Virus record (IMG/VR): IMGVR_UViG_3300020577_006835
Span: 132,588-196,587 of that record
Origin: a virus
Taxonomy: Duplodnaviria; Heunggongvirae; Uroviricota; Caudoviricetes
Direction: 5' to 3' (one strand)
Length of the DNA: 64,000 bases
Below, one piece after another: positions 6,147-47,231 of the stretch (position 1 is the first letter of the stretch; the number at the start of each line of letters is the position of its first letter). Below the pieces are notes generated by a model. The model saw only the letters and a list, made by a program, of their open reading frames with translations, had not been told where the DNA came from and ran no database searches. The position numbers and the translations under genes were made by a program.

Positions 6147-6551
6147 TTGGACTCGGACAACTTGATCAAGAAGCATCTCGTCGAGAGCAATCCGGGCGCA
6201 TCGCGTTCGTGGATCGCACCCGACGACACCGTGTACCCGCTGGACGTGGCCAACGGGCAGTTCCACGTTCACTGGGCCGAGGACAACGGCGACAAGATCC
6301 ATCCGAGCCTCCACGTGCACGACCAGAACGGCAAGCTCTGGGGTGAGCGCATGATGGACAAGATGATCCTGGCCGGCTGGATCAGGAAGAACAACAAGGA
6401 GCTGCAGTGCGGTGAGGGTCACGAGCACCGTGTGCAGGCGCACATCGACCGGTACGGCATGGGCAAGTGGCACCAGGTCAAGATCAATCTGAAGGCCGGC
6501 GGCAGGAAGGAGATGTCCTTCAAGGAGGGTGAGGTCCCGAGGGAGTGGTGA
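6147..6551 (+). CDS. leader-motif protein with GWIR module
   Basis: GGAGG then TTG; MDSDNLIKKHLVE leader; AGWIRK..GEGHEHRV shared with 15188 gene. Confidence 0.7.
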   Translation: MDSDNLIKKHLVESNPGASRSWIAPDDTVYPLDVANGQFHVHWAEDNGDKIHPSLHVHDQNGKLWGERMMDKMILAGWIRKNNKELQCGEGHEHRVQAHIDRYGMGKWHQVKINLKAGGRKEMSFKEGEVPREW

Positions 6552-6732
6552 GACGGACGAAGAAAGTACTTGCACACGAAAGCTGAAGTCTGCTACGGTC
6601 CACGACATGAAGGTTCTGGACCACATGGCTTGTGCAAGCTACCGATCGTCGAGTCCGCTCGCGTCGAGCGCCGCCGCGTCCAGCTCCTATACGTCAAGCT
6701 ATCGAAGCTGACGTCTAGGAGTTCCTTCTTTC

Positions 6733-6821
6733 GGAGAGGTGGCTGAGTCAGGCTGAAAGCGCCGGCTTTGAACACCGGTGAAGGGTGATGCCTTCCGTGA
6801 GTTCGAATCTCACCCTCTCCG
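6733..6821 (+). tRNA. trnS: tRNA-Ser(TGA)
   Basis: Cloverleaf GGAGAGG..CCTCTCC, long variable arm, GTTCGAAT; no CCA. Confidence 0.9.
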
Positions 6822-6825
6822 CTCT

Positions 6826-6898
6826 GGGGTTGTAGCTCACCTGGGAGAGCGTCGCACTTGCAATGCGAAGGTAAGGGGTTCGAGTCCCCTCAACTCCA
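6826..6898 (+). tRNA. trnA: tRNA-Ala(TGC)
   Basis: GGGGTTG acceptor with G3:U70, TCGCA-CTTGCAA-TGCGA anticodon arm. Confidence 0.92.
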
Positions 6899-6901
6899 CT
6901 T

Positions 6902-7079
6902 ATGAAGAGAGTGTTCACGTTCTGCCCGGTGTGCGGGAAGAAGGGGGGGGCACAAGCTGCACCCGACACGCTGGGATACAGGGCACGGCTGGCAGTGCCG
7001 GTACTGCTACGTGTGGAGCAACAACAGGCCAGACGAGCCTGACAAGGAGACGCTGAAGAAGCTTGGTCGAGTTACTTGA
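6902..7079 (+). pseudogene. zinc-ribbon ORF frameshifted at a G8 run
   Basis: CPVCG before and WQCRYC after G8 at 6943-6950; in frame only if one G is removed. Confidence 0.5.
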
Positions 7080-7080
7080 C

Positions 7081-7164
7081 GGGTAGGAGGTCCCAATGGC
7101 GCGGGGCGCAGGTCTGTAAAACCTGTTTCTTCGGAAGTTGATGGTTCGAGTCCATCCCTACCCA
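7081..7164 (+). tRNA. trnY: tRNA-Tyr(GTA)
   Basis: GGGTAGG..CCTACCC, CAGGT-CTGTAAA-ACCTG, variable arm. Confidence 0.9.
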
Positions 7165-7371: not shown

Positions 7372-7390
7372 CGTCGGCCGATACAGCTGT

Positions 7391-7477: not shown

Positions 7478-7524
7478 TTCCGCTCTCTTCCCGGGTCCAC
7501 GACGAAGCAGGTAGGATGGCAAGC

Positions 7525-8247
7525 ATGGACAAGATCGACGACATCCTGAAGACCGTGCTCGAAGGCTGCGCCCCCGAGGCGGCCGAGTACTACGCAACGC
7601 TGGAGAAGCCGGGCTGCACGATCCGCGACATCGCCGTGGCCATGGTCAAGGGCGACAAGCGGGGCCTCAGCGAGGCCTCCGTCGGCAGGGTGTACCAGCG
7701 CTGGCAGGCGGCCAAGAAGGGCCAGGGCAGCTTCGCCATGCTCACCGGCTGGCGCAGTGAGAACGGCCCGGTCAGGAACACGGCCAACAACCTGGAGATC
7801 GAGAGCCACCTGCGCGCCCGCAACCTGGGCTTCAACAGGATGCACGGTGCTGGCCAGGAGCGCGACGAGAAGACCGGCGAGCCCAAGATCTCACACGAGA
7901 AGTCGTTCTTCGTCCACAACATCGACCTGAAGACGGCGCACGCCCTGGCCACCAAGTACAGGCAGACCAGCTACATCTACTCCGGCCCCGAGACCGGCGG
8001 CAAGGTGCACCTGATCTACCCGGGCAGCCCGGCCGACAACGAGGTCTGGGACACGTTCCACCCGAAGCTGGCGGCCAAGTACTTCTCTCTGCTCAGGGGC
8101 AAGAGGGCGGGCCAGCCGTTCCACTTCGACTCGCCCGAGTTCCCGGCCGTGCACGAGGACTGGGACGAGCTGTGGATCGAGTACGTGCCCGCGGACCTGC
8201 AGGAGGCACGCTGGCTCGACAGCTGGGTCAGGAAGCTGAGCGCCTGA
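7525..8247 (+). CDS. DUF3293 / SAM-lyase-like protein with leader motif
   Basis: MDKIDDILKTVLEG leader; FAMLTGWRSE..N..N..L..G..E..EKSFFV..KYRQTSYIY. Confidence 0.55.
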   Translation: MDKIDDILKTVLEGCAPEAAEYYATLEKPGCTIRDIAVAMVKGDKRGLSEASVGRVYQRWQAAKKGQGSFAMLTGWRSENGPVRNTANNLEIESHLRARNLGFNRMHGAGQERDEKTGEPKISHEKSFFVHNIDLKTAHALATKYRQTSYIYSGPETGGKVHLIYPGSPADNEVWDTFHPKLAAKYFSLLRGKRAGQPFHFDSPEFPAVHEDWDELWIEYVPADLQEARWLDSWVRKLSA

Positions 8248-8267
8248 TCTGAACGAAAGGGGAACGG

Positions 8268-9185: not shown

Positions 9186-9192
9186 GCGGAAT

Positions 9193-9229: not shown

Positions 9230-10771
9230 GTGATGTCGGTTGACCTGAAGGACGTGTTGATCGAGCTGACCCTGCTGGAGGGTGCGGAGCAGGCTCTGGA
9301 GATCTTCCGGGCTGTCTTCGGCCCGCTGACCGAGGCTCGTGTGGGCAGGGCGAGGCAGGCCTTCGATCAGGGCGGCACGGCTGCCATCAGGAGCGGCATG
9401 GCTGCCCACCTGTGGCAGAAGGACCCTGGCTCGGCCATCTTCTACCCGAGGGCCGAGGTCAAGGACGCCGAGTCTCTGTCGCCCGAGATGCAGGGCAAGG
9501 TCTTCCTGAGCGATCTGAAGGCCGACCACCGGGCCATGTTCAGCAACCCGGACGAGGGTGGCTTCAAGGCGCCGAGCTACGCACCGCTCTCGTCCTACCT
9601 CAGGAAGCAGGTCGACCCGTCACGCAACGCGCCCACGGCCAGCGGCAGGGAGACCGACAGGCCGATGCCGCACGTGCACCCGGAGCACCAGGAGCTGATG
9701 CGCCAGGCGGCGATCCTGCACGGCGACTCGGCCAAGTGGTACCAGAAGCAGCACAGCATCGTGGGCTCGATCTTCAAGTCCGACGCCTACGACGACACGC
9801 ACATGATGCTAGGCTTCCTGGCCGCCACGTCACCGCGGACGCACCCACACCTGAACGCGGTCAAGGCGTTCCGTGCGTACAGGGACACGATCATGGGCAG
9901 GCCGCTGCCGCACACCGGTGCCGAGGTGCACAACATCGTGCGCGCTGCGCACGGCATTCCTCTCTCAGGCCCCAAGGTTCACAACTACGACAAGAACCTG
10001 AAGGGTGACCTGAGCGTCACGACGCACGACGTGCACGCCAAGGCGCTGGTCACGAACGACTTCAGCAGCTCGTTCCACCCCGAGTACCACCCGATGATCG
10101 GCCAGGCCATCAAGCAGACGGCCAAGCAGACCAACTACGAGCCCGGCGAGGCACAGGCAGCGCTCTGGGCGCACGACATCGCTCGCGTGCAGAACCACCC
10201 AGCCTTCCACGAGCGCGGCTCGATCTTCCGCGACATCTACAGCAAGGAGAAGGGTGGCCACCTGGACCCGACGGACGAGTTTCCGCACATCCAGGACTAC
10301 GAGCAGTACATCAGGCACAACGAGCCCGCTCTGCGCCGCATGAAGAAGGAGATGGACGACTACCGCCTGAACCACCCGGTCTACAGCAAGATGGCCGGCT
10401 CAGGGAAGCCGTTCCTCTTCGGCAAGGACATCTTCGGCGGCACCAGCCAGCAGGACTCGCACCCGGTCATGCGCTACGGGCAGGGCGCCAACGAGCCCAC
10501 TCGCTTCGACGCGATCGGAGCCGAGCACGTGGCCAAGGCTCTGCACAAGAGCGACGGCAGGGACCACCCGCTGGTCGACGTCAAGAGCCGCGACATCGCG
10601 CACCTGGACCCGGAGACGGGCTGGAACATGACGCCCAACGTCGGCGCCTTCTCGGACAAGCCGACCAGGCCGCGCAAGCTGGTCAAGCACGACTTCCTGG
10701 GCAAGACGTCGTCTGGTCGCAGGCCTGGCAAGCGCCAGGTCGTGGCCGGCTCGACGGAGACTCCATTTTGA
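9230..10771 (+). CDS. DUF7178-like (HhH-glycosylase-related) domain protein
   Basis: FLAATSPR..N, GPKVHNY..NL..VTTHDVHA, PGEAQAALW. Confidence 0.5.
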   Translation: MMSVDLKDVLIELTLLEGAEQALEIFRAVFGPLTEARVGRARQAFDQGGTAAIRSGMAAHLWQKDPGSAIFYPRAEVKDAESLSPEMQGKVFLSDLKADHRAMFSNPDEGGFKAPSYAPLSSYLRKQVDPSRNAPTASGRETDRPMPHVHPEHQELMRQAAILHGDSAKWYQKQHSIVGSIFKSDAYDDTHMMLGFLAATSPRTHPHLNAVKAFRAYRDTIMGRPLPHTGAEVHNIVRAAHGIPLSGPKVHNYDKNLKGDLSVTTHDVHAKALVTNDFSSSFHPEYHPMIGQAIKQTAKQTNYEPGEAQAALWAHDIARVQNHPAFHERGSIFRDIYSKEKGGHLDPTDEFPHIQDYEQYIRHNEPALRRMKKEMDDYRLNHPVYSKMAGSGKPFLFGKDIFGGTSQQDSHPVMRYGQGANEPTRFDAIGAEHVAKALHKSDGRDHPLVDVKSRDIAHLDPETGWNMTPNVGAFSDKPTRPRKLVKHDFLGKTSSGRRPGKRQVVAGSTETPF

Positions 10772-11307: not shown

Positions 11308-11583
11308 GTGAGCAGGGCAGATCAGCTGATCAAGCAGGCCCTGACAGAGAAGGCGCTGGTCAGCACGAACAACCACTCTGCGCGCAGCTCCGTCAAGTCG
11401 CTCCGCGGCCGTCCGTCCAGAGGCAGGAGCAAGCCGAGCGACCTGCAGCTGTTCCACAGGTTCCAGAAGCCCAAGCCGCAGGCCCGCAAGCCGGACGAGG
11501 ACATCGAGGCGGCCGACGTGCACGGCAAGATCAAGTTCCGTGTGCTGACCAGGGCGCACCAGAAGGAGTTGTTCTCCAAGTGA
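11308..11583 (+). CDS. small basic leader-motif protein
   Basis: MSRADQLIKQALTE. Confidence 0.7.
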   Translation: MSRADQLIKQALTEKALVSTNNHSARSSVKSLRGRPSRGRSKPSDLQLFHRFQKPKPQARKPDEDIEAADVHGKIKFRVLTRAHQKELFSK

Positions 11584-12659
11584 GCAAGCGGCTGCAGAAG
11601 AAGATCCAGGCGCAGCTGACGCCGGATCTCTTGCATCGCAAGTACAGGCACCTGGCAGCGGAGCACCCGCACGCCGGGCACTGCTACGCCGCGACCGAGG
11701 CCTTGTACCACGCGCTCGGAGCCGAGGGCTCAGGGTGGCGCCCGGTCAACATTCAGTGGGAAGGTTCGCAGCACTGGTTTCTGCAGCACAAGAAGACCGG
11801 CAAGGTGCTCGACCCGACAGCCGGCCAGTTCTCCAAGCCCGTACCCTACGAGCACGGCAGAGCACGAGGTTTCTTGACCAAGCATCCCTCGAAGAGAGCG
11901 CAGGAGATCATGAAGCGAGCCAAGCTCAACGAGTCGAACTGGTTCGCACCCGACTTTGAGAAGGAGAAGGGTGAGTTCGAGCGCGTCTCCCGGGAAACAG
12001 GCATCCACATCGACAAGCTCAAAGGCGCCTTCGCCAAGGGCAAGCTGGCTCCACTCTCGCCAGACCACTTCGCCAGCCTGGAGAACACGGACGCCAACAC
12101 CGGCGAGTACAAGACCGTCGACTCGGTGCACCACATGGCGCAGAGCTACGGTGGCAAGGATTCGCACGGCATCCACCGCGGCTTGACGCAGGGTGAGCAC
12201 CTGCCAGCGCCGATCGTACTGCACAGGAAGGGCAAGAGCCCGACCCTGGTCGCAGGTAACACGAGGCTGACCATGGCCACGGTCATGAACCAGCCTGTGC
12301 ACGCGGTGCACATCAACGTCGACGAGTCCCGCGCAGACCAGCTGATCAAGCTGGTGCTGCACGAGGGTGTCGTGCTCTCCGGCGAGCCTGGCAGCAAGCG
12401 TCTGATGACCGTGGCCATGCAGTACGGCTACCAGGAGACCGGCGAGCCAGAGGTCACGAAGACGGCCGTCGTGCACAAGCTGATCGACCCGAAGACCGGC
12501 TACCAGCTGCAGGTGCGCCGACTGCTGCAGCGCGATCGCGGCCTCGATCTGGACCAGAACATCTGGCAGCACTCTCCGACCAACGATCTGGGCACAGACC
12601 CGGAACATCTCACACAGGTTCTGCGTCTGGCGACGCGCAACGCGAGGGCGATCGCATGA
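11580..12659 (+). CDS. three-module polyprotein: Cys-His-Asp domain, ParB-like domain, unknown domain
   Basis: GHCYAATE..HWFL..VLDPT; LNES; PAPIVL..VAGNTRL; DESRADQLIKLVLHE. Confidence 0.65.
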   Translation: MSKRLQKKIQAQLTPDLLHRKYRHLAAEHPHAGHCYAATEALYHALGAEGSGWRPVNIQWEGSQHWFLQHKKTGKVLDPTAGQFSKPVPYEHGRARGFLTKHPSKRAQEIMKRAKLNESNWFAPDFEKEKGEFERVSRETGIHIDKLKGAFAKGKLAPLSPDHFASLENTDANTGEYKTVDSVHHMAQSYGGKDSHGIHRGLTQGEHLPAPIVLHRKGKSPTLVAGNTRLTMATVMNQPVHAVHINVDESRADQLIKLVLHEGVVLSGEPGSKRLMTVAMQYGYQETGEPEVTKTAVVHKLIDPKTGYQLQVRRLLQRDRGLDLDQNIWQHSPTNDLGTDPEHLTQVLRLATRNARAIA

Positions 12660-13273
12660 GTACTAGACCGAGAAAGAGAGGCAAGGCTCTCACGGTGATT
12701 GGCGCGGTCGTCGACCACCTTCGCCAGCGATTTATGAAGAACGTCGTTGTTCAGACAGACGGCTGCTGGCGGTGGACTGGTCAGCTGCGGGACAACGGGT
12801 ACGGCAAGTTCTCGGTTGTGAATCGCACGCAGTCTGCGCACCGTGTGTCGTACGCCCTGTTTAAAGAGGACATCCCGGCAGACTTGCTAGTAAGACATAC
12901 TTGTCATCAGAAATTCTGCGTCAATCCAGATCACTTGATCCTGGGCACGCACTTGGACAACGCGCAGGATAGCTTGCTAGCGGGGCTGTATCTGCGAGGT
13001 GACGATCACCCGTGCAGGAAGAACCCTTCCGTCATGCCGCGTGGTGAGAGGCACCCACACTCAGTTTTGACTGAGAACTCGGTGCTGAGCATCAGAGAGC
13101 GCTACGCGGCCGGTGGGTGTACCATGCAAACCCTAGCTTCTGAGTACAGATGTAGCATTACAGCGATCTCGTGCATCACTTCCGGTAGAACCTGGCTACA
13201 TGTAGGCGGCCCCATCACAAAGCCTGGCCTTGGTGGTAACGGCAAAGGTCGCAAGATTAGGAGGGCAGCATGA
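12656..13273 (+). CDS. HNH homing endonuclease with C-terminal HTH
   Basis: GCWRWTG..GYG..AHRVSY..VRHTCH..CVNPDHLILGT..DN; RGERHPHSVLTE. Confidence 0.9.
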   Translation: MSTRPRKRGKALTVIGAVVDHLRQRFMKNVVVQTDGCWRWTGQLRDNGYGKFSVVNRTQSAHRVSYALFKEDIPADLLVRHTCHQKFCVNPDHLILGTHLDNAQDSLLAGLYLRGDDHPCRKNPSVMPRGERHPHSVLTENSVLSIRERYAAGGCTMQTLASEYRCSITAISCITSGRTWLHVGGPITKPGLGGNGKGRKIRRAA

Positions 13274-14433
13274 GCAAGCATCCGGTGATTGTCATTCCGG
13301 GGCTTCAAGGGTCCACGCTGCAAAATTCCTATCAGCTCCGACCAGCTCCTCTCTGGAACGCGTGGGACGCGCTGCAGAAGCAGTTCTTCGGCCTCGACTT
13401 CGAGTCCCTGGCCCTGGCCAAGGGTGACACGGACTACGCCGACCATGTGGTCTCGACACCGCACCAGACCGTAGCCCTGCCGTACGAGGCGCTGGTCGAC
13501 TCGCTGCGCAGCAGGCTCAAGGTGCCGGTCTACGCCTTCCGCTACGACTGGCGGTACAGCTGCGCCACGTCAGCCGAACAGCTGGCAGAGTTCATCGAGC
13601 ACCTGCAGCGCAAGCCGATGCGCTCGATCCCTGACTGGGACGGCAGGTTCGACATCGTCTGCCACAGCTTCGGCGGCCTGGTCCTCAGAGCCTACCTGCA
13701 GCGCGTGCGCGGCTTGACGCAGGACGACGTGAACCGTGTCGTCTTCCTGGCTGTGCCGCACTACGGCGCCATGGATGCGCTTGACGCTCTGGTCCGAGGC
13801 CAGGCGCCGATCTTCGGCGGCCGCAAGGAGCTGCGTAAGCTGACCAGGACCTTCCCCTCTGCCTACGAGCTGCTGCCACGCTTCCCTGGCGCGGTGACCG
13901 ACGAAGAGGGCAAGGAGATCGACATCTTCGACGTCGACGACTGGCAGCGCAACGTGGTGTACGTGCCCGACCCTGACGGTGCGCAGCAGTGGAAGGTGGA
14001 CCAGGCCATGCTCGACAAGGCCGAGGTCACGATGGAGGGCATGGCCGACGTGCTGAGCCAGGGCATGCTGACACCTGACCAGTGCCTGACCGTGGTCGGT
14101 CTCGACCCTGGCTCGACACCGGTCTCGATCAAGGTCAAGCGCAGCGGCGGCCCGGTCGAGAACTGGTTCGACTTCAGCAAGGTCATGTACGGCGTCGGTG
14201 ACGGCGTTGTGCCGCTGATCTCGTCGCACATCCCTGGCGTGGACTACGTGTGGATCTCGAACAGCGACGCCTCTGCGATCAGCTTCGCACGCCTGATCTC
14301 GCTGCACGCCTTCCTGCCCTGCATCGACGAGGTGCACGCCATCTGCGAGCGCTTCTTCAGCGGCATCTCCGGTCCTGGCCTGCTGCCGCTCGGCATGCAG
14401 CCTGGTCAGTTCATCAGCGGGAAGCTTCCGTGA
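13270..14433 (+). CDS. alpha/beta hydrolase, LCAT/PGAP1-like lipase or acyltransferase
   Basis: VIPGLQGS, YDWR, CHSFGG nucleophile elbow, VPHYGA, GDGVVP. Confidence 0.85.
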   Translation: MSKHPVIVIPGLQGSTLQNSYQLRPAPLWNAWDALQKQFFGLDFESLALAKGDTDYADHVVSTPHQTVALPYEALVDSLRSRLKVPVYAFRYDWRYSCATSAEQLAEFIEHLQRKPMRSIPDWDGRFDIVCHSFGGLVLRAYLQRVRGLTQDDVNRVVFLAVPHYGAMDALDALVRGQAPIFGGRKELRKLTRTFPSAYELLPRFPGAVTDEEGKEIDIFDVDDWQRNVVYVPDPDGAQQWKVDQAMLDKAEVTMEGMADVLSQGMLTPDQCLTVVGLDPGSTPVSIKVKRSGGPVENWFDFSKVMYGVGDGVVPLISSHIPGVDYVWISNSDASAISFARLISLHAFLPCIDEVHAICERFFSGISGPGLLPLGMQPGQFISGKLP

Positions 14434-15191
14434 GCGACGAAGCACCCTCACTGCGCATGAGCTGGCGCGGCCGCAAGCCAGCGGGCCGCAACTGGGGCGG
14501 CAGTCTGAAGCCGTTCAAGACCGAGACCGGTGTGACCGTGCGTACGGTGCAGGCAGGCGACGGCATCGCGCACAAGATCTACGACGGCAAGACCTACGTC
14601 GGTCACATCTCCGGCTTCCCGGACATCCGAGACAGCCTGCGAGTCTACAAGACCCAGGTCGAGGATGAGCACCGCGGTAAAGGGCACTGGCAGAGCGCGA
14701 TTCGCAAGCTGGCCGACATCTACCCGGGCGGCGTTCACCTGAACAAGTACGAGCTGAGCCATGCGGGCCACTCCGCTGCGCGCAAGGTCCCTGGTGTCGA
14801 GGAGACCGACGAGAAGTTCTTGATCAAGCCGAGGCCGAGGGAGAGCGCCGACCAGCTGATCCGGCAGAAGCTCGAAGAGGGTCGCAAACGCCAGTACTTC
14901 TTCCACGGCACGAAAGCCCGACTACGCCGTGGCGACCTTGTCATGCCAGCCTCCAAGGTCGAGGGCGGCAAGACGAACTACGACGCGACGGACAAGGACT
15001 ACGCCTACGCGATGACGCGCGCTGACCATGCGCTGGACTACGCCGAGGTGAGCCACCAAGAAGGCAAGCCGGTAGTTTACCGGGTTCGTTCCCTGGGGGA
15101 CCACGAGCCGGACCCGAGTGACGATAGCAGGGGTGAGTACGTCCGCTCGCGCACAGGGTTCCGAGTCATGGGCAAGGTGCGGAAGCCATGA
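14430..15191 (+). CDS. GNAT domain plus Arr-like ADP-ribosyltransferase domain
   Basis: VEDEHRGKG motif A; linker ESADQLIRQKLEE; FFHGTKA.L..GDL..P..NY..VYRV..E.DP. Confidence 0.7.
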   Translation: MSDEAPSLRMSWRGRKPAGRNWGGSLKPFKTETGVTVRTVQAGDGIAHKIYDGKTYVGHISGFPDIRDSLRVYKTQVEDEHRGKGHWQSAIRKLADIYPGGVHLNKYELSHAGHSAARKVPGVEETDEKFLIKPRPRESADQLIRQKLEEGRKRQYFFHGTKARLRRGDLVMPASKVEGGKTNYDATDKDYAYAMTRADHALDYAEVSHQEGKPVVYRVRSLGDHEPDPSDDSRGEYVRSRTGFRVMGKVRKP

Positions 15192-17254
15192 CGCGCGCCG
15201 ACCAGCTGATCCGTGCAGTGCTTGATGAGGCTTTTGCACACAGCACCAGTACCCCAAAGCGTTTGGACATGATCCTGACGTCCGGGGTGCTCAAGGGTCA
15301 GTTCAGCCACCATCACTGGGCGAAGCCAAGCGCATCAAGAGGTTCCAAGAAGATCGTCAGCTTCTCGGACAATCCGTACTACTCGCATCACGACAACGGT
15401 CCTGCGCTGCTGTTTCACAGACACGCTGTTGGCGACCAGGTGTACACCCCGATCAAGATCGACGACCACGACCACTACGACTGGGTCAAGAACAACCTGG
15501 ACAAGATCGACCCGTCACTGCACAGCGAGTACGGTGACCACGCCGACACCATGACCGCGATGCTGCACGCCGGCTGGATCAGGAAGGCCAACAGCGACAG
15601 CTACACGGTGGGCGAGGGGCACGAGCATCGTGTCCGGGCCTACCACCTGCGCACGCACCCGGAGGAGCGCGAGATCTACATCGACGTCAGGCACCGCAAC
15701 AAGAAGCGGTCGAGCTACAGGTACAACCTGGACACGAGGACCAAGGTGAAGCTCGGTGAGTCCGCCGACAGCCTGATCCAGCTCATGCTCCTGTTCGAAG
15801 ACTTCAACGTCAAGATCAAGGACCCGCACAAGCTCTACCTGAAGCACGACTACACGGAGCCGGACAGGTACGCGACGCCGGGCAACCCAGGCTTCCCGGA
15901 GCACGGCTACAACATCACCCACCCTGAGCACGGCCACATCGGCCTCATCGTGGGCGACGAGGAGCCGAACGGGAGGTTCAACATCCGGCGCGTCGTGTTG
16001 AGTGGGAAGTACGGTGGTCTCACTGATGCGAAGGGTGCGCTCGGTGTTCAGGGTGTCATGCAGGTGGGCCGTGAGCTGCGGAAGTTCGGCCACACGCACG
16101 TCTACTCGAACTCCAGGGTCAGCGGTGTGCGCTCGGAGCGTGGCAACCACGTCGTCCCTGACGTCAAGCTGCCCGAGAGCATCGACGAGATCACGAAACC
16201 TGCCAAGGTCAGCTTCAGCAAGATGGGTCCGTCACCGGAGATCCCCGACGAGATCCGCAACATGACCTTCTTCCACGGCGTGCACGACGGCGACCGCGGT
16301 GAGCAGATCCTGCGCAGCGGTAGGTTGGTGCCCAGTACCTACGGTGTCGGCAGCAGGTGGGACAAATCGCTGACACCGCGCGATGACAAGGTGTACTTGG
16401 CTCAGGACCGTGTCGGGGCAATCTCGTACATGCAGCACCAGTGGAACGAGCACACGCCGTGGTATCAAGGGGAACCCAAGTCGAAGTACAGTTATCTGTT
16501 TCAGGTGTCCGGCCACGACCTCAACCATGCCGAAGCTGACGAGGACGTCGTGCGTCAAGTCTACAAGCAGACGCATGCGTGGGACGCGGAGCCGGAGTAC
16601 CGTCACCTGATACACCCAAGCTCCGTCAACCACGAAGTTGCACATCAAGGTAGGGCTCTGATTTCTCCGGATGAGCACCAGGTGATGGTCACGCGTCTCA
16701 GGTTGAAGAGACTCGACCACATTGCAAAGAAGCTGGCCAACAAGCTTCCTGTCCATCTGCACCACGACCTGATCATCAAGAACGGCTCTTCGGTAGCGCA
16801 CGGTGGCCCCGTCAAGATCACTGGCGCATGGCGCGTGCACAAGGACAAGCTCGACCAGCTGAACCGCTACGACGACTCGAACTTCGACGACATCGCCGAG
16901 CCGGTGCACCACCTGATCGGCAAGCAGGAGTCGATCGACGAGAACACGATCCCGAAGGGTGAGTGCTTCAGCTGGGCCTTCAAGCGCATGCTCGACCACC
17001 ACGTCAAGGGTGAGCACGACGCGGTCCTCGTGCACGGCAGCGTCAAGCACCCGTGGACAGGCAAGAGGTACGAGCACGCCTGGGTCGAGCACAAGGGCAA
17101 GGTGTACGACTGGCAGAGCACGGCCATGGGTCTCGGCAAGCAGCACACCGTGGCCTCGTTCAAGGCCGGCTACGAGCCGAAGCAGATCAAGAGGTACAAC
17201 GGCAAGCAGGCCGTGCGCGCCTCGGCCCGCGCCAAGCACTACGGTCCTTGGTAG
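15188..17254 (+). CDS. multi-module polyprotein (ART-like + GWIR, GNAT-like, ART-like, transglutaminase-like)
   Basis: MTRADQLIRAVLDE; internal ESADSLIQLMLLFE and ESIDE x2. Confidence 0.7.
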   Translation: MTRADQLIRAVLDEAFAHSTSTPKRLDMILTSGVLKGQFSHHHWAKPSASRGSKKIVSFSDNPYYSHHDNGPALLFHRHAVGDQVYTPIKIDDHDHYDWVKNNLDKIDPSLHSEYGDHADTMTAMLHAGWIRKANSDSYTVGEGHEHRVRAYHLRTHPEEREIYIDVRHRNKKRSSYRYNLDTRTKVKLGESADSLIQLMLLFEDFNVKIKDPHKLYLKHDYTEPDRYATPGNPGFPEHGYNITHPEHGHIGLIVGDEEPNGRFNIRRVVLSGKYGGLTDAKGALGVQGVMQVGRELRKFGHTHVYSNSRVSGVRSERGNHVVPDVKLPESIDEITKPAKVSFSKMGPSPEIPDEIRNMTFFHGVHDGDRGEQILRSGRLVPSTYGVGSRWDKSLTPRDDKVYLAQDRVGAISYMQHQWNEHTPWYQGEPKSKYSYLFQVSGHDLNHAEADEDVVRQVYKQTHAWDAEPEYRHLIHPSSVNHEVAHQGRALISPDEHQVMVTRLRLKRLDHIAKKLANKLPVHLHHDLIIKNGSSVAHGGPVKITGAWRVHKDKLDQLNRYDDSNFDDIAEPVHHLIGKQESIDENTIPKGECFSWAFKRMLDHHVKGEHDAVLVHGSVKHPWTGKRYEHAWVEHKGKVYDWQSTAMGLGKQHTVASFKAGYEPKQIKRYNGKQAVRASARAKHYGPW

Positions 17255-37973: not shown

Positions 37974-38845
37974 CGCGTGCAGACCACCTCATCTCGCTGG
38001 TTCTCGCCGAGGACCGCATGCCTGCGATGCAGGCCAAGTGGGCCGACAAGCTCAACACGAGCCACGACACCCGGCTCACTCTGTCCAACGACCAGCACGT
38101 CCGGGCTCACGCTGCGCTCAGGCACCTGCACGACATGGACCCGACGCCCAACAAGCAGTACATGGGCAAGCTGGTCGACTGGTACCACCGGGGCCAGTTC
38201 CGCGTCGAGGACAAGGACCGCATCAGCAACGCGGTCAAGGACTTCCACAGCCTGAAGAACCGGCTCAAGCCGGAGCACGCAGGCCCCGAGGTGGCCAACC
38301 CAAAGGACATCGGCAGCTACCCCTCGATCCACCACCTGGAGCGCGCTGTGAAGGCCGTGGGCACTCCGGTGGAGACTCCCTGGACCAAGACCACCGAGTC
38401 ACAGCGCCAGGCCGTCAAGGCCGGCTCCAACATCGTCCACGACGACGCCGACCTGACCGTGCGAGCCGTGCACACGCACGACGCGATGAAGGTCCTGGGC
38501 TCGAACACCAGCTGGTGCGTCGTACCGGACAAGGCGACCTTCGACGACTACCGTGAACAGGGTCCGCTCTACCACATCCACGAGAAGAAGACCGGGGCCA
38601 GGAAGCTGATCCACTTCGGCTCCGACCAGTTCATGGACGAGGACGACGAGCCAGTCGACCACGAGGATTACGGGGACCAGCACCCTGTCCTGAAGAAGCT
38701 GTTCCACGGCAAGAGCTACGACAAGTTCAACTCTCCGGAGGAGATGGAGCACCGCATCAAGACCGACCAGAAGGTGGACCCTGGAGTGTTCTCCGCGGCC
38801 GCCCGGTCAGCAAGGGCGACTTCAACCTGTCCAGCGTCTACCTGA
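37970..38845 (+). CDS. leader-motif WCT-family protein 2 (probably continues by frameshift)
   Basis: MTRADHLISLVLAE; DPTPNKQY; NTSWCV; GPLY; QFMDE. Confidence 0.7.
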   Translation: MTRADHLISLVLAEDRMPAMQAKWADKLNTSHDTRLTLSNDQHVRAHAALRHLHDMDPTPNKQYMGKLVDWYHRGQFRVEDKDRISNAVKDFHSLKNRLKPEHAGPEVANPKDIGSYPSIHHLERAVKAVGTPVETPWTKTTESQRQAVKAGSNIVHDDADLTVRAVHTHDAMKVLGSNTSWCVVPDKATFDDYREQGPLYHIHEKKTGARKLIHFGSDQFMDEDDEPVDHEDYGDQHPVLKKLFHGKSYDKFNSPEEMEHRIKTDQKVDPGVFSAAARSARATSTCPAST

Positions 38846-38886
38846 CGCACCACCCGGACACGGGCGAGAAGCTGGCCGACGCGCCG

Positions 38887-39189
38887 GTGTCGGATGCCGA
38901 CTACGGCAAGATCCACCCGCACGTGAAGAACCTGCTCGGCCCGGCCAGGCTGCGCGGCATCCTTGGCCAGCTCAAGCAGCACGGTGCCGAGAGGGTCTAC
39001 AGCATCCAGCGCACGACCGGCACCAGGGCCAACTGGAAACCGTCGCCTGAGGACCTGAAGAAGTTCTTCATTCCTCCAAAGACGGTTGTGCCGCCGTTCA
39101 GGCTGCGTGAGGAGTTTGAAGTTCACCTGCTTTGGGAGTATGAACGTCCGACGGCGGACGGGCTGATCAGGGCCGCACTGGAGGGGTGA
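38887..39189 (+). CDS. GNAT-like module; coding frame extends upstream to about 38800
   Basis: LGPARLRGILGQLK..SIQRTTGTR; ends TADGLIRAALEG. Confidence 0.55.
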   Translation: MSDADYGKIHPHVKNLLGPARLRGILGQLKQHGAERVYSIQRTTGTRANWKPSPEDLKKFFIPPKTVVPPFRLREEFEVHLLWEYERPTADGLIRAALEG

Positions 39190-41081: not shown

Positions 41082-41365
41082 CGGAGAGTCCGATGAGCGC
41101 TGATGAGCTGGCCAAGGTCATGTGGCGCGACGGCGTCTTTCAAGGCGCTGTCGTCAAGTGCAACGGGTTGCAGGACGGTAAGGGTGTCTGGGTGTGCTCG
41201 ACGGTGGAAGAGACCCTCGCCGCGATCGACGAGGCGTTCGCCCGCGAACACGAACGAGCTGACCGGTACCGTGAGCACGGCTGGGACGGGCCGCCAGCGA
41301 TGATTCTGATCGAAGAGCGACTGGGTGTCGGCCGTCGCGAGGCGAGGTTGCGGAGTGACCACTAG
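41078..41365 (+). CDS. hypothetical protein
   Basis: Coupled ORF. Confidence 0.5.
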   Translation: MTESPMSADELAKVMWRDGVFQGAVVKCNGLQDGKGVWVCSTVEETLAAIDEAFAREHERADRYREHGWDGPPAMILIEERLGVGRREARLRSDH

Positions 41366-42926
41366 AGCCGAGATGCTGGTCAATCTGGTCCTGGCCGAGG
41401 ACCGACTGCCAGCGCTGCAGCAGAAGTGGGCCAACCTCGACTTCTCGCACGACCGCGCTGCGGTCAGCGCTGGGCACAAGCCTGAGGACATCGTGTCGCA
41501 CATGGCCTCCATGGTCGACCCGTCGCCGAACAAGCAGTACACCGACCGTGCTCTGCACTGGTACAGCAAGAAGCAGTTCAGACTCGAAGACCATGGGCGG
41601 GTGCGCAGGGTGCTCGACACCTTCCATCGCGTGCGCCAGCGCATGCCGGTCGACGCTGCTGCGCACCACGGCGTCAAGAACGCGCGCGACATCAACAGCT
41701 ACAAGTCGGTCCACGACCTGGAAGATGCGTTGATGCCGTTCGAGCACGAGAAGACCAAGTCGGAGGTCAAGGCCACCGACCGCGCCGTAGTCGACCTGGG
41801 CTCGAAGCTGCTGCACAAGGACGACAAGGTCGAGGTGCGGAGGCTGCACAACTCCAGCCGAGGTAAGGCAGCCATGATGGTCCTCGGCCGCAACACCAGG
41901 TGGTGCACTGCAGCCAAGGAGGACAATCAGTTCGACAACTATGCGTCCGAAGGTCCGCTCCACTTCGTGCACGACAAGGTGGAGAACAAGAAGTACCTGA
42001 TGCACCACGAGAGTGGGCAGTACATGGACGAGCAGGACCGAGATGCTGAGAGCGAGCTGACCCAGCTGGGCAACAGGCACCCCGTGCTGCACAAGGTACT
42101 GCACCACGACTCGCTCGGCCCGTTTTTCAGCGACGCTGTGGCCAAGGAAAAGATGGAGAAGCATCAGAGTGGTGTCGGCCGCTCCCCAATGCCGAACATC
42201 TCCGGCTACGCTGAACGAAGCCGTGACCCTGAGATGCTTGACGAACTCTCGCAGCATCCGTACGCGCAGGGCTTGAAGGTCGCCCAGAATCCACATGCCG
42301 CGGAGCACACGCTGCAGCGATTGGCGTCGGTCGAGCCTCATGCAGTCGCGATGAACCCGAAGGCGAGCGCTCAGGTCTTGCACACCGCAGCGATGAAGCT
42401 GCACGGTGATGAGACGACCAGCGCGGTTGCGAGTCGCAGAAGGATCGTGACGCACCCGAACGCAGGCCCTGAGACGATCGACCACCTGATCAAGCACATG
42501 GACGCCTCTGAGTACCAGGCCAACTCTCACAAGGCGGCTGCGAACAAGAACACCTCAGCCACCACGTTGCACCACATCGTGGACAGAGCACCTGGCCCGC
42601 GTCCAAGCTCCGGCTTCATTCCGAAAGAGGCCAGTCTTGCCGTGAGGCACCCGAACGCCTCGGCTGAGGTGTTGGACCTGGCGGATCAGAAGTACGGCAA
42701 GCACTTCCTTGGACTCCGGGACGACATTGCCAGGCACCCGAACGCGGCGAGTCACACGCTGGACCGGATTGCGCGGGACGAGTACAGGCACAACGCGGTA
42801 CGCAACACGCTGTTCAGGCATCCGAACCTGTCCAAGGAGACCGAGCACGGGCTCCACACCCACTTCGGTGAGCTGACCAAGAGCGGCTACGATCCGAACC
42901 CGAACTACCAAGGAGTACGACGGTGA
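41355..42926 (+). CDS. leader-motif WCT-family protein 3 with LRV-type helical repeats
   Basis: MTTRAEMLVNLVLAE; DPSPNKQY; NTRWCT; about 8 HPNA/NPxA repeats. Confidence 0.75.
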   Translation: MTTRAEMLVNLVLAEDRLPALQQKWANLDFSHDRAAVSAGHKPEDIVSHMASMVDPSPNKQYTDRALHWYSKKQFRLEDHGRVRRVLDTFHRVRQRMPVDAAAHHGVKNARDINSYKSVHDLEDALMPFEHEKTKSEVKATDRAVVDLGSKLLHKDDKVEVRRLHNSSRGKAAMMVLGRNTRWCTAAKEDNQFDNYASEGPLHFVHDKVENKKYLMHHESGQYMDEQDRDAESELTQLGNRHPVLHKVLHHDSLGPFFSDAVAKEKMEKHQSGVGRSPMPNISGYAERSRDPEMLDELSQHPYAQGLKVAQNPHAAEHTLQRLASVEPHAVAMNPKASAQVLHTAAMKLHGDETTSAVASRRRIVTHPNAGPETIDHLIKHMDASEYQANSHKAAANKNTSATTLHHIVDRAPGPRPSSGFIPKEASLAVRHPNASAEVLDLADQKYGKHFLGLRDDIARHPNAASHTLDRIARDEYRHNAVRNTLFRHPNLSKETEHGLHTHFGELTKSGYDPNPNYQGVRR

Positions 42927-43333
42927 TGACCGCGGATGCACTGATCAACCTCGTGCTCGAAGCTGAGGTCACCGACCTGAAGGGTCGTCGCGACCTGAAG
43001 AACTTCGCCACACAGCTGCGCTCCCAGCTCAAGGCCAAGGCTGAAGCCAAGCGTGCCGACTACGAAGCTCGCGGCTGGCCTGCTAAGGGCGATCAGTACC
43101 ACGACGTGCTCACCCGTCACGGCTTCACGGACAACGGCACCAGGTACGGCTCGTTGACCAAGGAGTACAGCCGCGGTGACGAGCGGGTGACCTTCGGGCC
43201 TGATCTGCGCGACGGGATCGAGTGGTCGCACACCCCGCGGTACAACAACCGCATGTTCAACCGCAGCACCGGTGTGCACCACGACGAGCTGGATCGGGTG
43301 CTCTCGAAGCCGAAGATGTCGAGGGTGAAGTGA
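42923..43333 (+). CDS. leader-motif hypothetical protein
   Basis: MMTADALINLVLEAE. Confidence 0.7.
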   Translation: MMTADALINLVLEAEVTDLKGRRDLKNFATQLRSQLKAKAEAKRADYEARGWPAKGDQYHDVLTRHGFTDNGTRYGSLTKEYSRGDERVTFGPDLRDGIEWSHTPRYNNRMFNRSTGVHHDELDRVLSKPKMSRVK

Positions 43334-43824
43334 TCGCTGACGACCTGATCAAGGCTGCGCTCAACGAGGCCCCACTCAAGATCGACAACGAGCACGGGCT
43401 CGGCGCGGTGCCGGACAACCGGAACGTCAACTACATGGGCTACACCGTGCACATGAAGCCGGCCGAGTTCCTGAAGCTGAACCCAGCGCGCCCCGATCAC
43501 CCGCAGCACGCCATCGACCACGTACGAGCCGGGGGTGCTGTCGGCACGCCGTTCATCTCAGCGAAGTGGAACGAGACCGGCAAGCACTGGGAGGTCTACC
43601 AGCACGAGGGTCGCGGCCGCATGCAGGCTGCGCACGAGCTGTTCCCTGATGAGGACGTGCCGGTGCACGTGTTCCCCAGCGGTGAAGGCTACGAGATCCG
43701 CTCCAGGCACCTGACGGACGAGCACCTGTTCGCCCCGATCAAGTCGGACGAGAGGCGTGGCGCGATCAAGTTTACCTTCCAGCCGCAGCGCGTGATCCAC
43801 GACGGCAAGGAGAAGACGCGGTGA
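43330..43824 (+). CDS. leader-motif protein with ParB-like domain
   Basis: MIADDLIKAALNE; GTPFI..WEVYQHEGRGRMQA. Confidence 0.65.
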   Translation: MIADDLIKAALNEAPLKIDNEHGLGAVPDNRNVNYMGYTVHMKPAEFLKLNPARPDHPQHAIDHVRAGGAVGTPFISAKWNETGKHWEVYQHEGRGRMQAAHELFPDEDVPVHVFPSGEGYEIRSRHLTDEHLFAPIKSDERRGAIKFTFQPQRVIHDGKEKTR

Positions 43825-44381
43825 GAGCCGACGAGCTGATCTGCGCGCAGCTCACCGAATCCGAGTATTCGGTGTTCAAGGTGCCGCATACCAACATGCT
43901 GGTTGGTGACCCGTACTACAACACCAACATCAGGCACCAGGAGCGCGGCCTCATGAGCCTGCGCGACTTCGTCAGGAACGATGGCAGCGAGGTGTTGCAC
44001 AAGCTGTACGCGGACAGGAAGCTCAGCCAGAACGACTGGAGCCCGGTCTCGTTCCACGGACTCAAGATCTATAAGGGTGATCAGCACATCGCCGACGTCG
44101 AGTACAACGTGCTGCAATCGAAGAAGGGCCAGCACGCGCACATCGGATGGGCTTACAACACGAGTTCTTCGACCAACCTTGGATCTCGTGCCGACGAGCC
44201 GCACCCAGGTGCGTTCAGGGCCGTCGTCAAACACATCCAGCGTGAGCACCCGAAGGTGGGTTCGATCTCGGCGGACAGGATGAGCGGAGCTGGTCAGGGT
44301 GCGCGTGTCTGGTCCCCGCCGAAGCCCAAGCCGCAGCAGCGGGAGTTCCCGTTTGCCAGCGCCCAGGCAGGTGCACGGTGA
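43821..44381 (+). CDS. leader-motif protein with GNAT-like module
   Basis: MRADELICAQLTE; PGAFRAVVKHIQREHP..ISADRMSGA. Confidence 0.65.
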   Translation: MRADELICAQLTESEYSVFKVPHTNMLVGDPYYNTNIRHQERGLMSLRDFVRNDGSEVLHKLYADRKLSQNDWSPVSFHGLKIYKGDQHIADVEYNVLQSKKGQHAHIGWAYNTSSSTNLGSRADEPHPGAFRAVVKHIQREHPKVGSISADRMSGAGQGARVWSPPKPKPQQREFPFASAQAGAR

Positions 44382-45601
44382 GCGATCAGGCTGACAGACG
44401 CAGCCTGCCGGCTGAGGTGCGCCGCATGTCTGCCGAGACGGCCAAGAAGCTCGCAGCTGCGCTCAAGCAGGGGCTCGTAGACCGCAAGAAGCCTGAGAAG
44501 GTCGACGAGGCTGTCTCCAAGAGAGCCGTCAAGCTCATCGCGCAGGAGCTGGACACAGGCCGCTCCAGGATGAGCGAGGTGCCCCGCAAGGTGCGTGATG
44601 CCTCCCGTGCCAGCCTGCCTGACAAGGTCACCGTCTGGCGCTCGGTCGCTCTGCACAGCGAGAACCCGGGCATCCGACCAGAGACCGGTGTCGTGTCCAC
44701 CACGCGCAGCCCGCGCGTGGCCATGAACATGGCGACCAACTACCCGGTGCTCATGGGCAAGGACAAGTTCATCGCTCCCAAGCCGGCCATCCTGCGCTAC
44801 GAGGTGCCTCGCGAGCGCGTGCACGCGTACGTGCCCGGGATGATCGACCAGGCCCGAGCCGACCACGGTGACGAGCTGAAGAAGATGAAGATCACCGGCC
44901 GGCGCAGCTACCAGCGCATGAGCGTGCACGACGTCTTCGACCAGACGCACCGCGAGGACGAGGTGCTGGCCGACGTGTCAGGGCTCACGCCCGAGGTGCT
45001 GCACTTCCACGGGGGCGAGCAGGTGGCCGACCAGGAGCACATGCACGCGATCCATGACCTGGTGCAGGGTAGGGCTCAGGGCTCCGGTGCTGAGTACATC
45101 GACTCGCGCAAGAAGTACGGCACCTACTTCCGCGACGAGCCCAAGGCGGCACAGGAGTACGACGACTTCTTCAAGAAGGCGCGGCACCACTTCCGCGAGA
45201 GCGTGAACGAGGCTGTGCTGAGACCGTTCCGCTGCTCCTGTGGCCACTCGTGGGTCGACGAGGACACCCCGTCCGGCAGGGCCTGCCACGCGTGCTCAGG
45301 TGGCAAGGGCAAGCCCTTCGTCGGCGAGTCGGTCGACCAGCTGATCAGAGCTGTGCTTGAGGGTGACGATGACTGGATGCTCGACAAGGGCATCTTCGAT
45401 CTCAATTCGAAAGCCAAGCCGAAGTCGAAGCCTAAGGCTGTTGACCACAGGCCGCTGGCGAAGTGCAGCGAGTGCGGCAAGAGGCACCGGCTGCGACCTG
45501 CTTTCATGCCCGGCGATGACCGCCCTGACGCGGAGCGCGTCAAGGACACGCTGTGTTTCCGGTGTGAACGCACCCACCGTGCATCTATGAGCAACGACTG
45601 A
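44378..45601 (+). CDS. polyprotein: ART-like domain plus two zinc-finger modules
   Basis: VWRSV..VSTTRSPRVA..LRYEV; linkers ESVNE and ESVDQLIRAVLE; CSCG..CHAC; CSECG..CFRC. Confidence 0.65.
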   Translation: MSDQADRRSLPAEVRRMSAETAKKLAAALKQGLVDRKKPEKVDEAVSKRAVKLIAQELDTGRSRMSEVPRKVRDASRASLPDKVTVWRSVALHSENPGIRPETGVVSTTRSPRVAMNMATNYPVLMGKDKFIAPKPAILRYEVPRERVHAYVPGMIDQARADHGDELKKMKITGRRSYQRMSVHDVFDQTHREDEVLADVSGLTPEVLHFHGGEQVADQEHMHAIHDLVQGRAQGSGAEYIDSRKKYGTYFRDEPKAAQEYDDFFKKARHHFRESVNEAVLRPFRCSCGHSWVDEDTPSGRACHACSGGKGKPFVGESVDQLIRAVLEGDDDWMLDKGIFDLNSKAKPKSKPKAVDHRPLAKCSECGKRHRLRPAFMPGDDRPDAERVKDTLCFRCERTHRASMSND

Positions 45602-46362
45602 TGCGAGCCGACCAGCTCATCAAGGCCAAGCTCGACGAGATCGCCAAGCCGGCCAAGGTCAAGTTCTCCAGCATGGGGCCGTCACCGGCAGTGCCCGAGG
45701 CGATGCGCTCGATGGACTTCTACCACGGTGTCGACAACGATGCGGCTGCGCACGGGATTCTTGCCGCAGGCAGGCTGGAGCCGGCCACCTATGGGCACAG
45801 CACCTTCCACCGTGGGTACTCCGCTCCGCGGCCGGACAAGGTGTACTTGACGAAGGACGCGTCGCACGCCGCGGAGCGTGCTCTGAGTGGTACTCGACTG
45901 GGCAGTGACACGGAGGAGCCCTACCTCAAGACTGGTAGGTACGGGTACATCTTCAAGGTCGCTGGCGGCGATCTGAACAGCGTCGAAGCCGACGAGGACA
46001 ACATCGAGCGCGCGTACTGGAACACGCATGGTGGGGGGCCTGCCGGACTCGGCGTGCACCACGGCGTGGCTGATCTTGGCAAGCGGGTGCTCAGCCAGAA
46101 GGACCACGACACCCTGATGGGTGGAGGCTCGTTCAACAGACGCGTGCGCGTCGCCAAGAAGCTCGCCGGCCACATGACGCCGGACATGCACCACGACCTG
46201 GTCTTGACGCAGAACGCACACATCGCGCACGGCGGCCCGGTCAGGATCGTCGGAGCGTGGCGCATCGACAAGACGCGCAACGGTGAGTTCCACTGGAACG
46301 GCTCGGATCTGTTTCAGAAGGCCGAGCCGCTGCACCACCTGATCGGCAAGGGCCTCAAGTGA
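45601..46362 (+). CDS. leader-motif ART-like protein, paralog of internal module of 15188
   Basis: MRADQLIKAKLDE; FYHG..IL..GRL.P..KVYLT. Confidence 0.7.
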   Translation: MRADQLIKAKLDEIAKPAKVKFSSMGPSPAVPEAMRSMDFYHGVDNDAAAHGILAAGRLEPATYGHSTFHRGYSAPRPDKVYLTKDASHAAERALSGTRLGSDTEEPYLKTGRYGYIFKVAGGDLNSVEADEDNIERAYWNTHGGGPAGLGVHHGVADLGKRVLSQKDHDTLMGGGSFNRRVRVAKKLAGHMTPDMHHDLVLTQNAHIAHGGPVRIVGAWRIDKTRNGEFHWNGSDLFQKAEPLHHLIGKGLK

Positions 46363-47231
46363 AGAAGTGGCTTAAACCCGAAGAGCACAGCCCGCCAGGT
46401 GAAGCCGGCAACTACGGCTGGGTGCACCCGAAGACTGGGCTCTACTACAACGGGGTCTGGGGCGGGCACGCCAAGGCTGCGCACGAGCTGGGCTTCAGGG
46501 GCGACACTGACACCGAGATCAACGACAACGCCGTCGATGCCGGCTACACGCGCTGGTACGTGGCACCGGACGAGATCGGTGTGCACTTCAACAAGGACTG
46601 CCCGGATGCACCGAAGCGGGCCAAGGAGACGCTGGCCTACCATGCACAGAGCCAGCGTGGCCGCATGCTGCTCGCCGACACGGGCACCGACTACTACCAC
46701 GGCACCTCTCTGAAGGACGCGCACGCCTTCATCGACCGCGTGTCGACCAAGATGAGGGGCCGCAAGGAGACCGACTACATGCGCATGAAGCGTGAGCTGG
46801 GGGAGTCGCGCATCGACCAGCTGATCCGCGACACGCTGTCCGAGTCAGTCCAGCTCGTGCGGGACCAGAGCATCACCGGTGCGGATCGCGCCCGCTACAA
46901 CGTGCACCACAACGGCGAGAACATCGGCATGCTGGCGGTCAGCAAGGTGCGCAGCGCTCCTGGTCTGCCGGCCGGCGCCGTCGGCGGCAAGCTCGGCGTC
47001 AAGATCTCACCACAGCACCGCGGCAACCCGAAGCTGGTCATGAGCGCCATGCGGCAGCTCAAGCAGCTGCACCCTGACTTGACGCACGTGGGAGGCTTCC
47101 GGCTCACTGGCACGCGCTCCGACGCTGATGCCGGCGACAGCTACACGTGGGTGAAGCTGCGTGAAGATGCCAACGCCAACGCCCTGATCTCGGCCAAGAT
47201 CAAGGTGCTGCGGGACGAGGGTTGTAAGTGA
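46359..47231 (+). CDS. polyprotein: GW module plus GNAT-like module; 3' end interrupted by HNH gene
   Basis: YGWVHP..GH..AGYTR; ESRIDQLIRDTLSE; MRQLKQLHP..GGFRLTGTR. Confidence 0.65.
   Translation: MKKWLKPEEHSPPGEAGNYGWVHPKTGLYYNGVWGGHAKAAHELGFRGDTDTEINDNAVDAGYTRWYVAPDEIGVHFNKDCPDAPKRAKETLAYHAQSQRGRMLLADTGTDYYHGTSLKDAHAFIDRVSTKMRGRKETDYMRMKRELGESRIDQLIRDTLSESVQLVRDQSITGADRARYNVHHNGENIGMLAVSKVRSAPGLPAGAVGGKLGVKISPQHRGNPKLVMSAMRQLKQLHPDLTHVGGFRLTGTRSDADAGDSYTWVKLREDANANALISAKIKVLRDEGCK

Follow-up and report, generated by a model that had tools for sequence, protein, structure and literature searches.

The DNA described here is a 64,000-nucleotide stretch (the window), bases 132588-196587 of the 208,019-bp IMG/VR record IMGVR_UViG_3300020577_006835 (63% GC, completeness estimate 93%), a phage record in which nearly all genes are held by the plus strand. 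Its subject is a short peptide, the tag, with the consensus (M/ES)-x-[RS]-A-D-x-L-I-x-x-x-L-x-E and a length of 12-14 residues, found at the start of a series of proteins, most of them encoded in two islands of the window, and also between the modules of several of them. We consider it likely that this motif is the lineage's counterpart of the capsid-targeting sequence (CTS) of phage T4, ending in a head-protease site. The genes concerned are listed below in window coordinates, with an arrow (↓) at putative cut positions.

A, 6147..6551 (+): TTG start; tag M-D-S-D-N-L-I-K-K-H-L-V-E, then a His-rich 'WIRK' module, paralog of module 1 of H.
B, 7516..8247 (+): degenerate tag ..M-D-K-I-D-D-I-L-K-T-V-L-E↓G, then a DUF3293 domain.
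C, 9233..10771 (+): degenerate tag M-S-V-D-L-K-D-V-L-I-E-L-T-L-L-E↓G, then a DUF7178-like domain.
D, 11308..11583 (+): GTG start; tag S-R-A-D-Q-L-I-K-Q-A-L-T-E and a basic tail of 77 amino acids (aa); 91 aa.
E, 11580..12659 (+): three modules without an N-terminal tag; K-L-N-E↓S junction; internal E-S-R-A-D-Q-L-I-K-L-V-L-H-E at 12324-12365.
HNH gene, 12656-13273: untagged, within island 1; Pfam HNH_3 match.
F, 13270..14433 (+): LCAT/PGAP1-like lipase, untagged, within island 1.
G, 14457..15191 (+), start uncertain: GNAT-like module; internal tag at 14841-14879; Arr-like ADP-ribosyltransferase (ART) module.
H, 15188..17254 (+), 688 aa: tag at residues 1-14; module 1; E-S tag at 15758-15799; module 2; ESIDE at 16175-16189; module 3 (ART fold, Q paralog); ESIDE at 16928-16942; module 4 (papain/transglutaminase-like fold).
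I, 36700..37221 (+): degenerate tag M-S-D-R-A-A-R-L-I-A-T-A-L-A-E↓G.
J, 37221..37973 (+): tag M-R-A-D-Y-L-I-S-L-A-L-S-E; J/K/L paralog family.
K, 37970..39189 (+): tag M-T-R-A-D-H-L-I-S-L-V-L-A-E; a downstream frame ends in a C-terminal T-A-D-G-L-I-R-A-A-L-E-G from 39154.
L, 41355..42926 (+): GTG start; degenerate tag T-T-R-A-E-M-L-V-N-L-V-L-A-E; J/K/L domain and LRV-like repeats.
M, 42926..43333 (+): tag M-T-A-D-A-L-I-N-L-V-L-E-A-E.
N, 43330..43824 (+): GTG start; tag I-A-D-D-L-I-K-A-A-L-N-E.
O, 43821..44381 (+): GTG start; tag R-A-D-E-L-I-C-A-Q-L-T-E.
P, 44378..45601 (+): no N-terminal tag; ESVNE junction at 45197-45211; internal E-S-V-D-Q-L-I-R-A-V-L-E at 45326-45361.
Q, 45601..46362 (+): tag M-R-A-D-Q-L-I-K-A-K-L-D-E↓I-A-K-P; ART-fold domain.
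R, 46359..47231 (+): two modules joined by an internal E-S-R-I-D-Q-L-I-R-D-T-L-S-E at 46803-46844.

A preliminary description of the window had reported a recurrent motif at protein starts and between domains and read it as a tag for head packaging and cleavage; all the checks by computation that it suggested spoke for this reading. Every copy that it listed was recovered in place by a six-frame regular-expression search, on the plus strand and in frames of high third-codon-position GC (GC3), and more were found. The tag stands at the N-terminus of about 15 genes (at least 12 clear copies and 3 degenerate ones, at 7516/7525, 9233 and 36700), and a start codon with a Shine-Dalgarno-like sequence directly precedes it in at least 12 copies, as at 6147 (TTG), 11308 (GTG), 15188, 37221, 37970, 41355 (GTG), 42926, 43330 (GTG), 43821 (GTG) and 45601. 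Internal copies after E-S lie at 12324, 14841, 15758, 45326 and 46803 (internal count 5-6), short linkers at 16175 and 16928 (ESIDE) and 45197 (ESVNE), and a C-terminal copy, beyond the earlier list, at 39154. A further two genes that bear the tag, both counted among these 12, lie outside the window (genome positions 202437 and 203334) and adjoin the capsid and lysozyme genes. The genes had also been described as forming two islands; the lipase gene F and the HNH gene of island 1 bear no tag. The coordinates of the copies stood, but the copy at 11308 was found to head a separate gene (11308-11583) and not the N-terminus of a 473-aa open reading frame (ORF), the next gene, E, starting at 11580 in a GTGA overlap.

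The strict tag pattern, [ASVITG]-D-x-[LIM]-[IVL]-x3-L-x-E, has 12 matches in the plus frames and 2 in the minus frames, compared with a mean of 0.25 and a maximum of 4 in 200 residue shuffles. A hidden Markov model (HMM) built from the tag copies, a test that is circular for its own seed copies, was scanned genome-wide and gave 11 matches of at least 19 bits, all within the window and on the plus strand, with the top minus-strand match at 4.6 bits. L-x-E terminates nearly all copies in this genome and in its relatives. The codons of conserved residues vary from copy to copy (Arg CGC/CGT/AGG/CGA/AGA; Ala GCA/GCC/GCG/GCT), and because synonymous sites vary, the tag is conserved as a peptide and not as DNA, with selection acting on the peptide. 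The same differences led us to reject a signal in the DNA itself, be it a recombination site or a regulatory repeat. The sequences behind the tag are mostly unrelated, since BLAST gives only three paralogy links among tagged proteins: A with module 1 of H, module 3 of H with Q, and J, K and L mutually. Two tag-like ends were also seen elsewhere. A CCA-adding enzyme fusion protein encoded at genome position 125880, ~6.7 kb before the window, has the C-terminal end K-E-S-V-N-K-V-D-E-L-I-A-E-A-L-K-G, which lacks the final Glu and may be a chance resemblance or a decayed copy, and a small ORF at 2475-2732 of the window, with a modest coding signal, ends in ..I-A-L-E-S-V-G-A-D-L-L-V-K-A-A-L-L-E-R.., which would be a C-terminal tag-like copy.

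Several tagged proteins consist of more than one module, four in H and two to three in E, G, P and R. The earlier proposals that the module boundaries fall at the motif Glu or at ESIDE linkers, and that the motif forms a helix apart from folded domains, are both borne out, by the match ends of H homologues and the starts of the Q module on the one hand and by AlphaFold2 (AF2) models of H and Q on the other. When H was compared with 1.84 billion representative proteins, the boundaries of its 403 matches piled up at residues 334/335 and 580-590, which are the two ESIDE linkers. The Q module always begins I-[AT]-K-P-A-K-V, behind three different elements: the N-terminal tag (Q and the homologues P0002 and P0003), an internal E-S tag (P0009 and P0010) and ESIDE (H). 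Module 2 of H is found alone behind an N-terminal tag (P0030), and the N-terminus of P reappears behind an internal tag in a polyprotein of the related locus L013. Among the representative proteins from homology searches, a Glu lies within four residues before the tag in 10 of 12 internal copies. The AF2 model of H places one helix on the N-terminal tag (4-17) and another on the internal tag (193-202), with a confident domain from ~590, and in the model of Q (predicted local distance difference test, pLDDT, 89) the tag helix (2-15) stands apart from the fold, with a stretch of low confidence between the two.

The preliminary description had made its proposal of cleavage depend on a gp21-like, Glu-specific head protease, and one is encoded by a 524-aa ORF that begins 9 nt past the window end. 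It scores 52.7 bits (cut-off 27) for Peptidase_S77, the family of T4 gp21, and matches the T4 gp21 structure 5jbl with an E-value of 1.3e-7, and it keeps His75 (L-G-H-P) and the serine motif G-V-S-S-R-G; an S80-family protease match reached 16.5 bits only, below the cut-off of 23.4. The protease is fused to a scaffold-like region, its C-terminal 337 residues, which is helical, and the gene that follows encodes a Gp23-type capsid protein (Pfam Gp23, 215 bits) with the match running from residue 75, after an N-terminal propeptide. T4 gp21 is processed at both ends, with L-I-E-9 near its N-terminus (PMC9026906). In the phage protease, P-L-L-E10↓S takes the place of L-I-E-9 near the N-terminus, and in a pairwise alignment V-I-A-E187↓S overlies T4 gp21 I-T-E↓S precisely at the end of the protease domain. 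E10-S11, E187-S188 and E423-S424 of the protease-scaffold protein are invariant in three relatives of ~50% identity. From these E↓S sites of the protease itself, which give independent grounds, the x-x-E↓S that precedes every internal tag is read as a cut site.

The distribution of possible cut sites over the proteins points in the same direction. Outside the tag, the 19 tagged proteins contain 33 [LIVM]-x-E sites compared with 50 expected from shuffles (p about 0.004). For the remaining 193 confident proteins the observed/expected ratio is 1.21, and 300 subsets of matching size all stayed at 0.94 or above. The same sites are enriched in the scaffold-like part (18 vs 9.5 expected) and in the capsid propeptide (4 vs 1.6), and low in the mature capsid part (2 vs 3.7). 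Depletion in the cargo together with enrichment in the scaffold is the pattern expected if the cargo must outlast a protease that shreds the scaffold.

The phage belongs to a lineage far from those in culture. Near-identical DNA occurs in at least nine studies of wastewater, activated-sludge, digester, river and freshwater metagenomes, and no cultured phage has a capsid protein more than 40% identical to this one, Listeria phage LIS04 and Bacillus phage SP-15 coming closest. Island 1 gave no megablast match among cultured phages, and a tblastn search of these with Q and the protein P0147 gave one weak match only, to an annotated ADP-ribosyltransferase of Tunturiibacter phage Tunturi_5. A search of viral contigs with gene Q for related loci found no relative, and scans of viral contigs and metagenomes with a protease profile gave about a dozen in all. 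Relatives with 49-89% protease or 67-68% capsid identity (45-63% GC) carry the tag on small genes directly after the capsid gene, for example as G-G-G-G-E↓S-Y-T-P-A-D-D-L-I-K-A-R-L-S-E↓S or M-K-A-D-E-L-I-T-Q-R-L-A-E↓T, so the motif is kept beside the capsid gene outside this record as well. The contig L013 (66% GC) has at least 10 tag copies in 12 kb, with a different module order. This tag is missing from L028 and L022, whose protease identity is 29-37%. Genes of the T4-like head module in L022 (37% protease identity) have, in its place, T4-like M-K/M-D leaders with an x-E end: M-K-S-L-I-K-E-I-E, M-K-L-T-D-I-K-N-S-L-N-E and M-D-L-K-N-I-L-N-E. Distant homologues of the Q module in other phage lineages begin M-K-T-L-R-Q-I-L-G-E↓M-A-A-P, M-K-F-Y-K-F-L-S-E↓M-A-N-P or M-L-P-S-F-R-A-F-I-L-E↓M-A-A-P, with the same boundary, and therefore one cargo family stands behind different lineage-specific leaders that all end in hydrophobic-x-Glu. 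Eight neighbouring genes of the contig L018 (positions 1-6886; Logan SRR22477851; 24% GC, TGA read as Trp), one of them a Q-module homologue, all start MKF..F[LI].E. These leaders resemble MKTYQEFIAE of T4 (PMC8442874), the classical tag picture, and L018 is, judging from its gene starts, a putative separate capsid-tag array in a recoded phage.

The modules behind the tag are diverse, and Pfam and PHROGs scans left the majority of them without a name. The module after the tag in G is an Arr-like ADP-ribosyltransferase (Pfam, 36 bits), while the top Foldseek matches of Q and of module 3 of H are all ARTs, but weak ones (E 6e-3 or worse). H as a whole matched 97 clusters at E<=1e-10 in the representative library. 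Its module 4 (16943-17254, 105 aa) has a papain/transglutaminase-like fold, with 3c9q (Z 7.3) and LapG (Z 6.9) as best matches, and conserved Cys, His and Asp in the motifs G-x-C-F, H-A-W-V-E and Y-D-W-Q. This module is common as a stand-alone 105-aa protein without a Pfam family, and it is the source of most strong H matches. Tagged proteins contain 6.4% His, compared with 2.2% in the rest of the proteome, and 0.4% Cys, compared with 1.5%.

In the mechanism that we favour, the tag is a short amphipathic helix whose D-x-L-I part would dock the protein on the scaffold core of the assembling prohead, and a gp21-type prohead protease would cut after the terminal L-x-E. The whole tag is repeated between modules in five proteins, where the preceding x-x-E↓S would serve as a second cut site, and the ES[IV][DN]E linkers, shorter than the tag, likewise join modules; because the tag between modules is flanked by cut sites, it is proposed that one packaged polyprotein is cut into separate enzymes. 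The freed enzymes, with ART-fold, Arr-like, GNAT-like, papain/transglutaminase-like and other modules, would remain inside the head and be delivered to the host along with the DNA. An extension of this mechanism, which we put forward tentatively and hold with clearly less confidence, is that E↓S-x-A-D-x-L-I-x-x-x-L-x-E↓ may act as a position-independent cassette, an address plus a double cut site, of which a single internal copy could load a whole polyprotein and then be excised.

Several points weigh against the capsid-targeting interpretation. The phage is uncultured and known from sequence alone; that the tagged proteins bind to the core, are cleaved, stay in the head, are injected and act early as effectors is in each case what we infer. 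The tag has no sequence likeness to the T4 CTS, the cargo is His-rich and not Lys-rich as are T4 internal proteins, and the lipase F and the HNH gene remain untagged within the islands. E, G, P and R (four or five proteins) are tagged internally only, and targeting by an internal CTS is without experimental precedent. The AF2 model of whole H is poor (mean pLDDT 48) save for the tag helix and module 4, and prediction of a complex between the protease-scaffold protein and the first 40 residues of Q spoke neither for nor against binding. Finally, the depletion of L-x-E could be due in part to fold class.

Even if the tag directs proteins to the prohead core, these could be scaffold or inner-body material, degraded or kept as structural filling, instead of injected effectors. 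T4 likewise targets and cleaves its core proteins gp22, gp67 and gp68 (PMC5694885), the tagged proteins D, S and M are small, basic or disordered and without an enzyme fold, and the His-rich composition could serve DNA or metal binding. We nevertheless regard this explanation as unlikely, given that many modules have enzyme folds (Arr-like, ART fold, papain-like with conserved Cys/His) and that the depletion of L-x-E suggests mature parts meant to survive the protease, unlike the scaffold part. A similarly low probability is assigned to the helix serving for docking to, or maturation by, a partner outside the capsid, such as a hub in the cytoplasm, a different protease, or an enzyme that recognises and modifies a shared leader in the manner of ribosomally synthesized and post-translationally modified peptides (RiPPs), with the proteins acting in the producing cell. 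The complex prediction, neutral in outcome, lent no support to an interaction with the protease-scaffold protein, and this could be counted in favour of such a partner. However, the tag ends in a gp21 site, relatives have tagged genes next to their capsid genes, T4-like leaders stand on homologous cargo of other lineages, and sites that are depleted in cargo and enriched in scaffold follow the logic of a head protease. A search for PF04055, the radical-SAM family, found no match in the 208-kb genome and matched 14 of 14 control genomes, and a radical-SAM-type (RiPP-like) leader system is ruled out by this missing family.

The modules have been reshuffled among phages with the motif at their joints, which is also what would be seen if it were a mere conserved recombination junction, or a generic helical cap, with no role in targeting or cleavage. 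This is very improbable, more so than either of the preceding explanations. The DNA is not conserved beyond codon bias, whereas the peptide is kept across phages of 45-66% GC, is strictly N-terminal in at least 12 genes with their own ribosome-binding sites, and retains Glu at both ends.

The closest known parallel to the capsid-targeting interpretation is T4, whose internal proteins and the ADP-ribosyltransferase Alt carry leaders of 10-19 residues that target the prohead core and are removed by gp21 (PMC9026906, PMC5694885, PMC8442874). As with the CTS of IPI-III and Alt, a short N-terminal leader with a hydrophobic-x-Glu end stands here on unrelated, fast-evolving proteins, in a genome with a gp21-family protease, a gp23-type capsid protein, ADP-ribosyltransferase cargo and a scaffold rich in cut sites. 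Except for the CTS, T-even phages have diverse internal proteins (PMC3012670, PMC9026906), and these CTS-bearing variable proteins combine, as here, a single tag that ends in (L/I)-x-E with many cargoes. Unlike the T4 sequence, the tag described here is 12-14 aa, slightly longer, and unrelated, having only the terminal hydrophobic-x-E in common with MKTYQEFIAE (PMC8442874); it also occurs internally, where a cut site on either side would divide multi-enzyme polyproteins; protease and scaffold-like region form one fusion protein; and about 20 genes are tagged, with His-rich cargo. Polyvalent proteins are likewise multi-domain effectors with ART, GNAT and peptidase-like modules, extensively reshuffled, and packaging and delivery along with the DNA have been predicted for them (Iyer et al. 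2017, PMC5512222). For these, however, a zincin-like metallopeptidase (MPTase) of their own has been proposed for processing, whereas head-protease sites and a targeting helix lie at the junctions here; Pfam scans of all tagged proteins (E <= 0.01) found no zincin-like metallopeptidase and no MuF-type domain. The ejection and inner-body proteins of phiKZ, 201phi2-1 and SPN3US resemble this system, for these too are jumbo phages whose heads contain many internal proteins, with families of paralogs and cutting after Glu, but their propeptides are mostly longer than 100 residues, with the cut motif [SAG]-x-E and an S80 protease, compared with tags of 12-14 aa here. Altogether, what is new is the A-D-x-L-I-x-x-x-L-x-E tag, its reuse as a putative excisable cassette between modules and the site-depletion signature, as well as the presence of such a tag in a remote jumbo lineage of high GC whose protease is fused to the scaffold. 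The distinctive feature is the repetition of the whole tag at module junctions.

If the capsid-targeting interpretation is true, about 20 genes without an assigned function, roughly 17 kb, of an abundant wastewater jumbo phage would be given one role, that of virion-delivered cargo, and the tag-and-trim principle of T4 would hold, with a different peptide, for a gp23/gp21 lineage very far from it. The internal copies point to a simple way of making multi-enzyme cargo, with relevance to phage counter-defence and to the packaging of foreign proteins by capsid tags. Under the more tentative cassette reading, any two cassette-joined domains would become co-packaged and separately released effectors, sets of injected enzymes could be built and exchanged in a manner like exon shuffling, and selection against L-x-E in cargo would be a genome-only predictor of virion cargo. 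Protease sites that are depleted in cargo and enriched in scaffold also provide an inexpensive test, applicable to other phages from the genome alone.

Some further observations concern individual genes. In gene K, the GC3 coding signal shifts from frame 1 to frame 0 near 38785, ~60 nt before the stop at 38845, and frame 0, with its first start codon at 38887, is open to 39189. An assembly error was ruled out, independent assemblies from other samples having the same sequence without an indel, and the change could reflect a frameshift site or overlapping genes. Contigs of three other samples diverge just after 39258 and share one alternative sequence, and this strain-variable junction is the start region of a 279-aa gene at 39191-40030. 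An untagged LCAT/PGAP1-like lipase gene adjoins tagged genes both here and in a relative of 47% GC (L010, 3561-4724), and membership of the lipase F in the cargo set is uncertain. Genes of HNH-type endonucleases lie in or beside the cargo islands, at 12656-13273 and 47228-47809, and just after the capsid gene, at genome positions 199816-200187, the latter two being called from Cys/His motifs only, and all three are probably homing elements.

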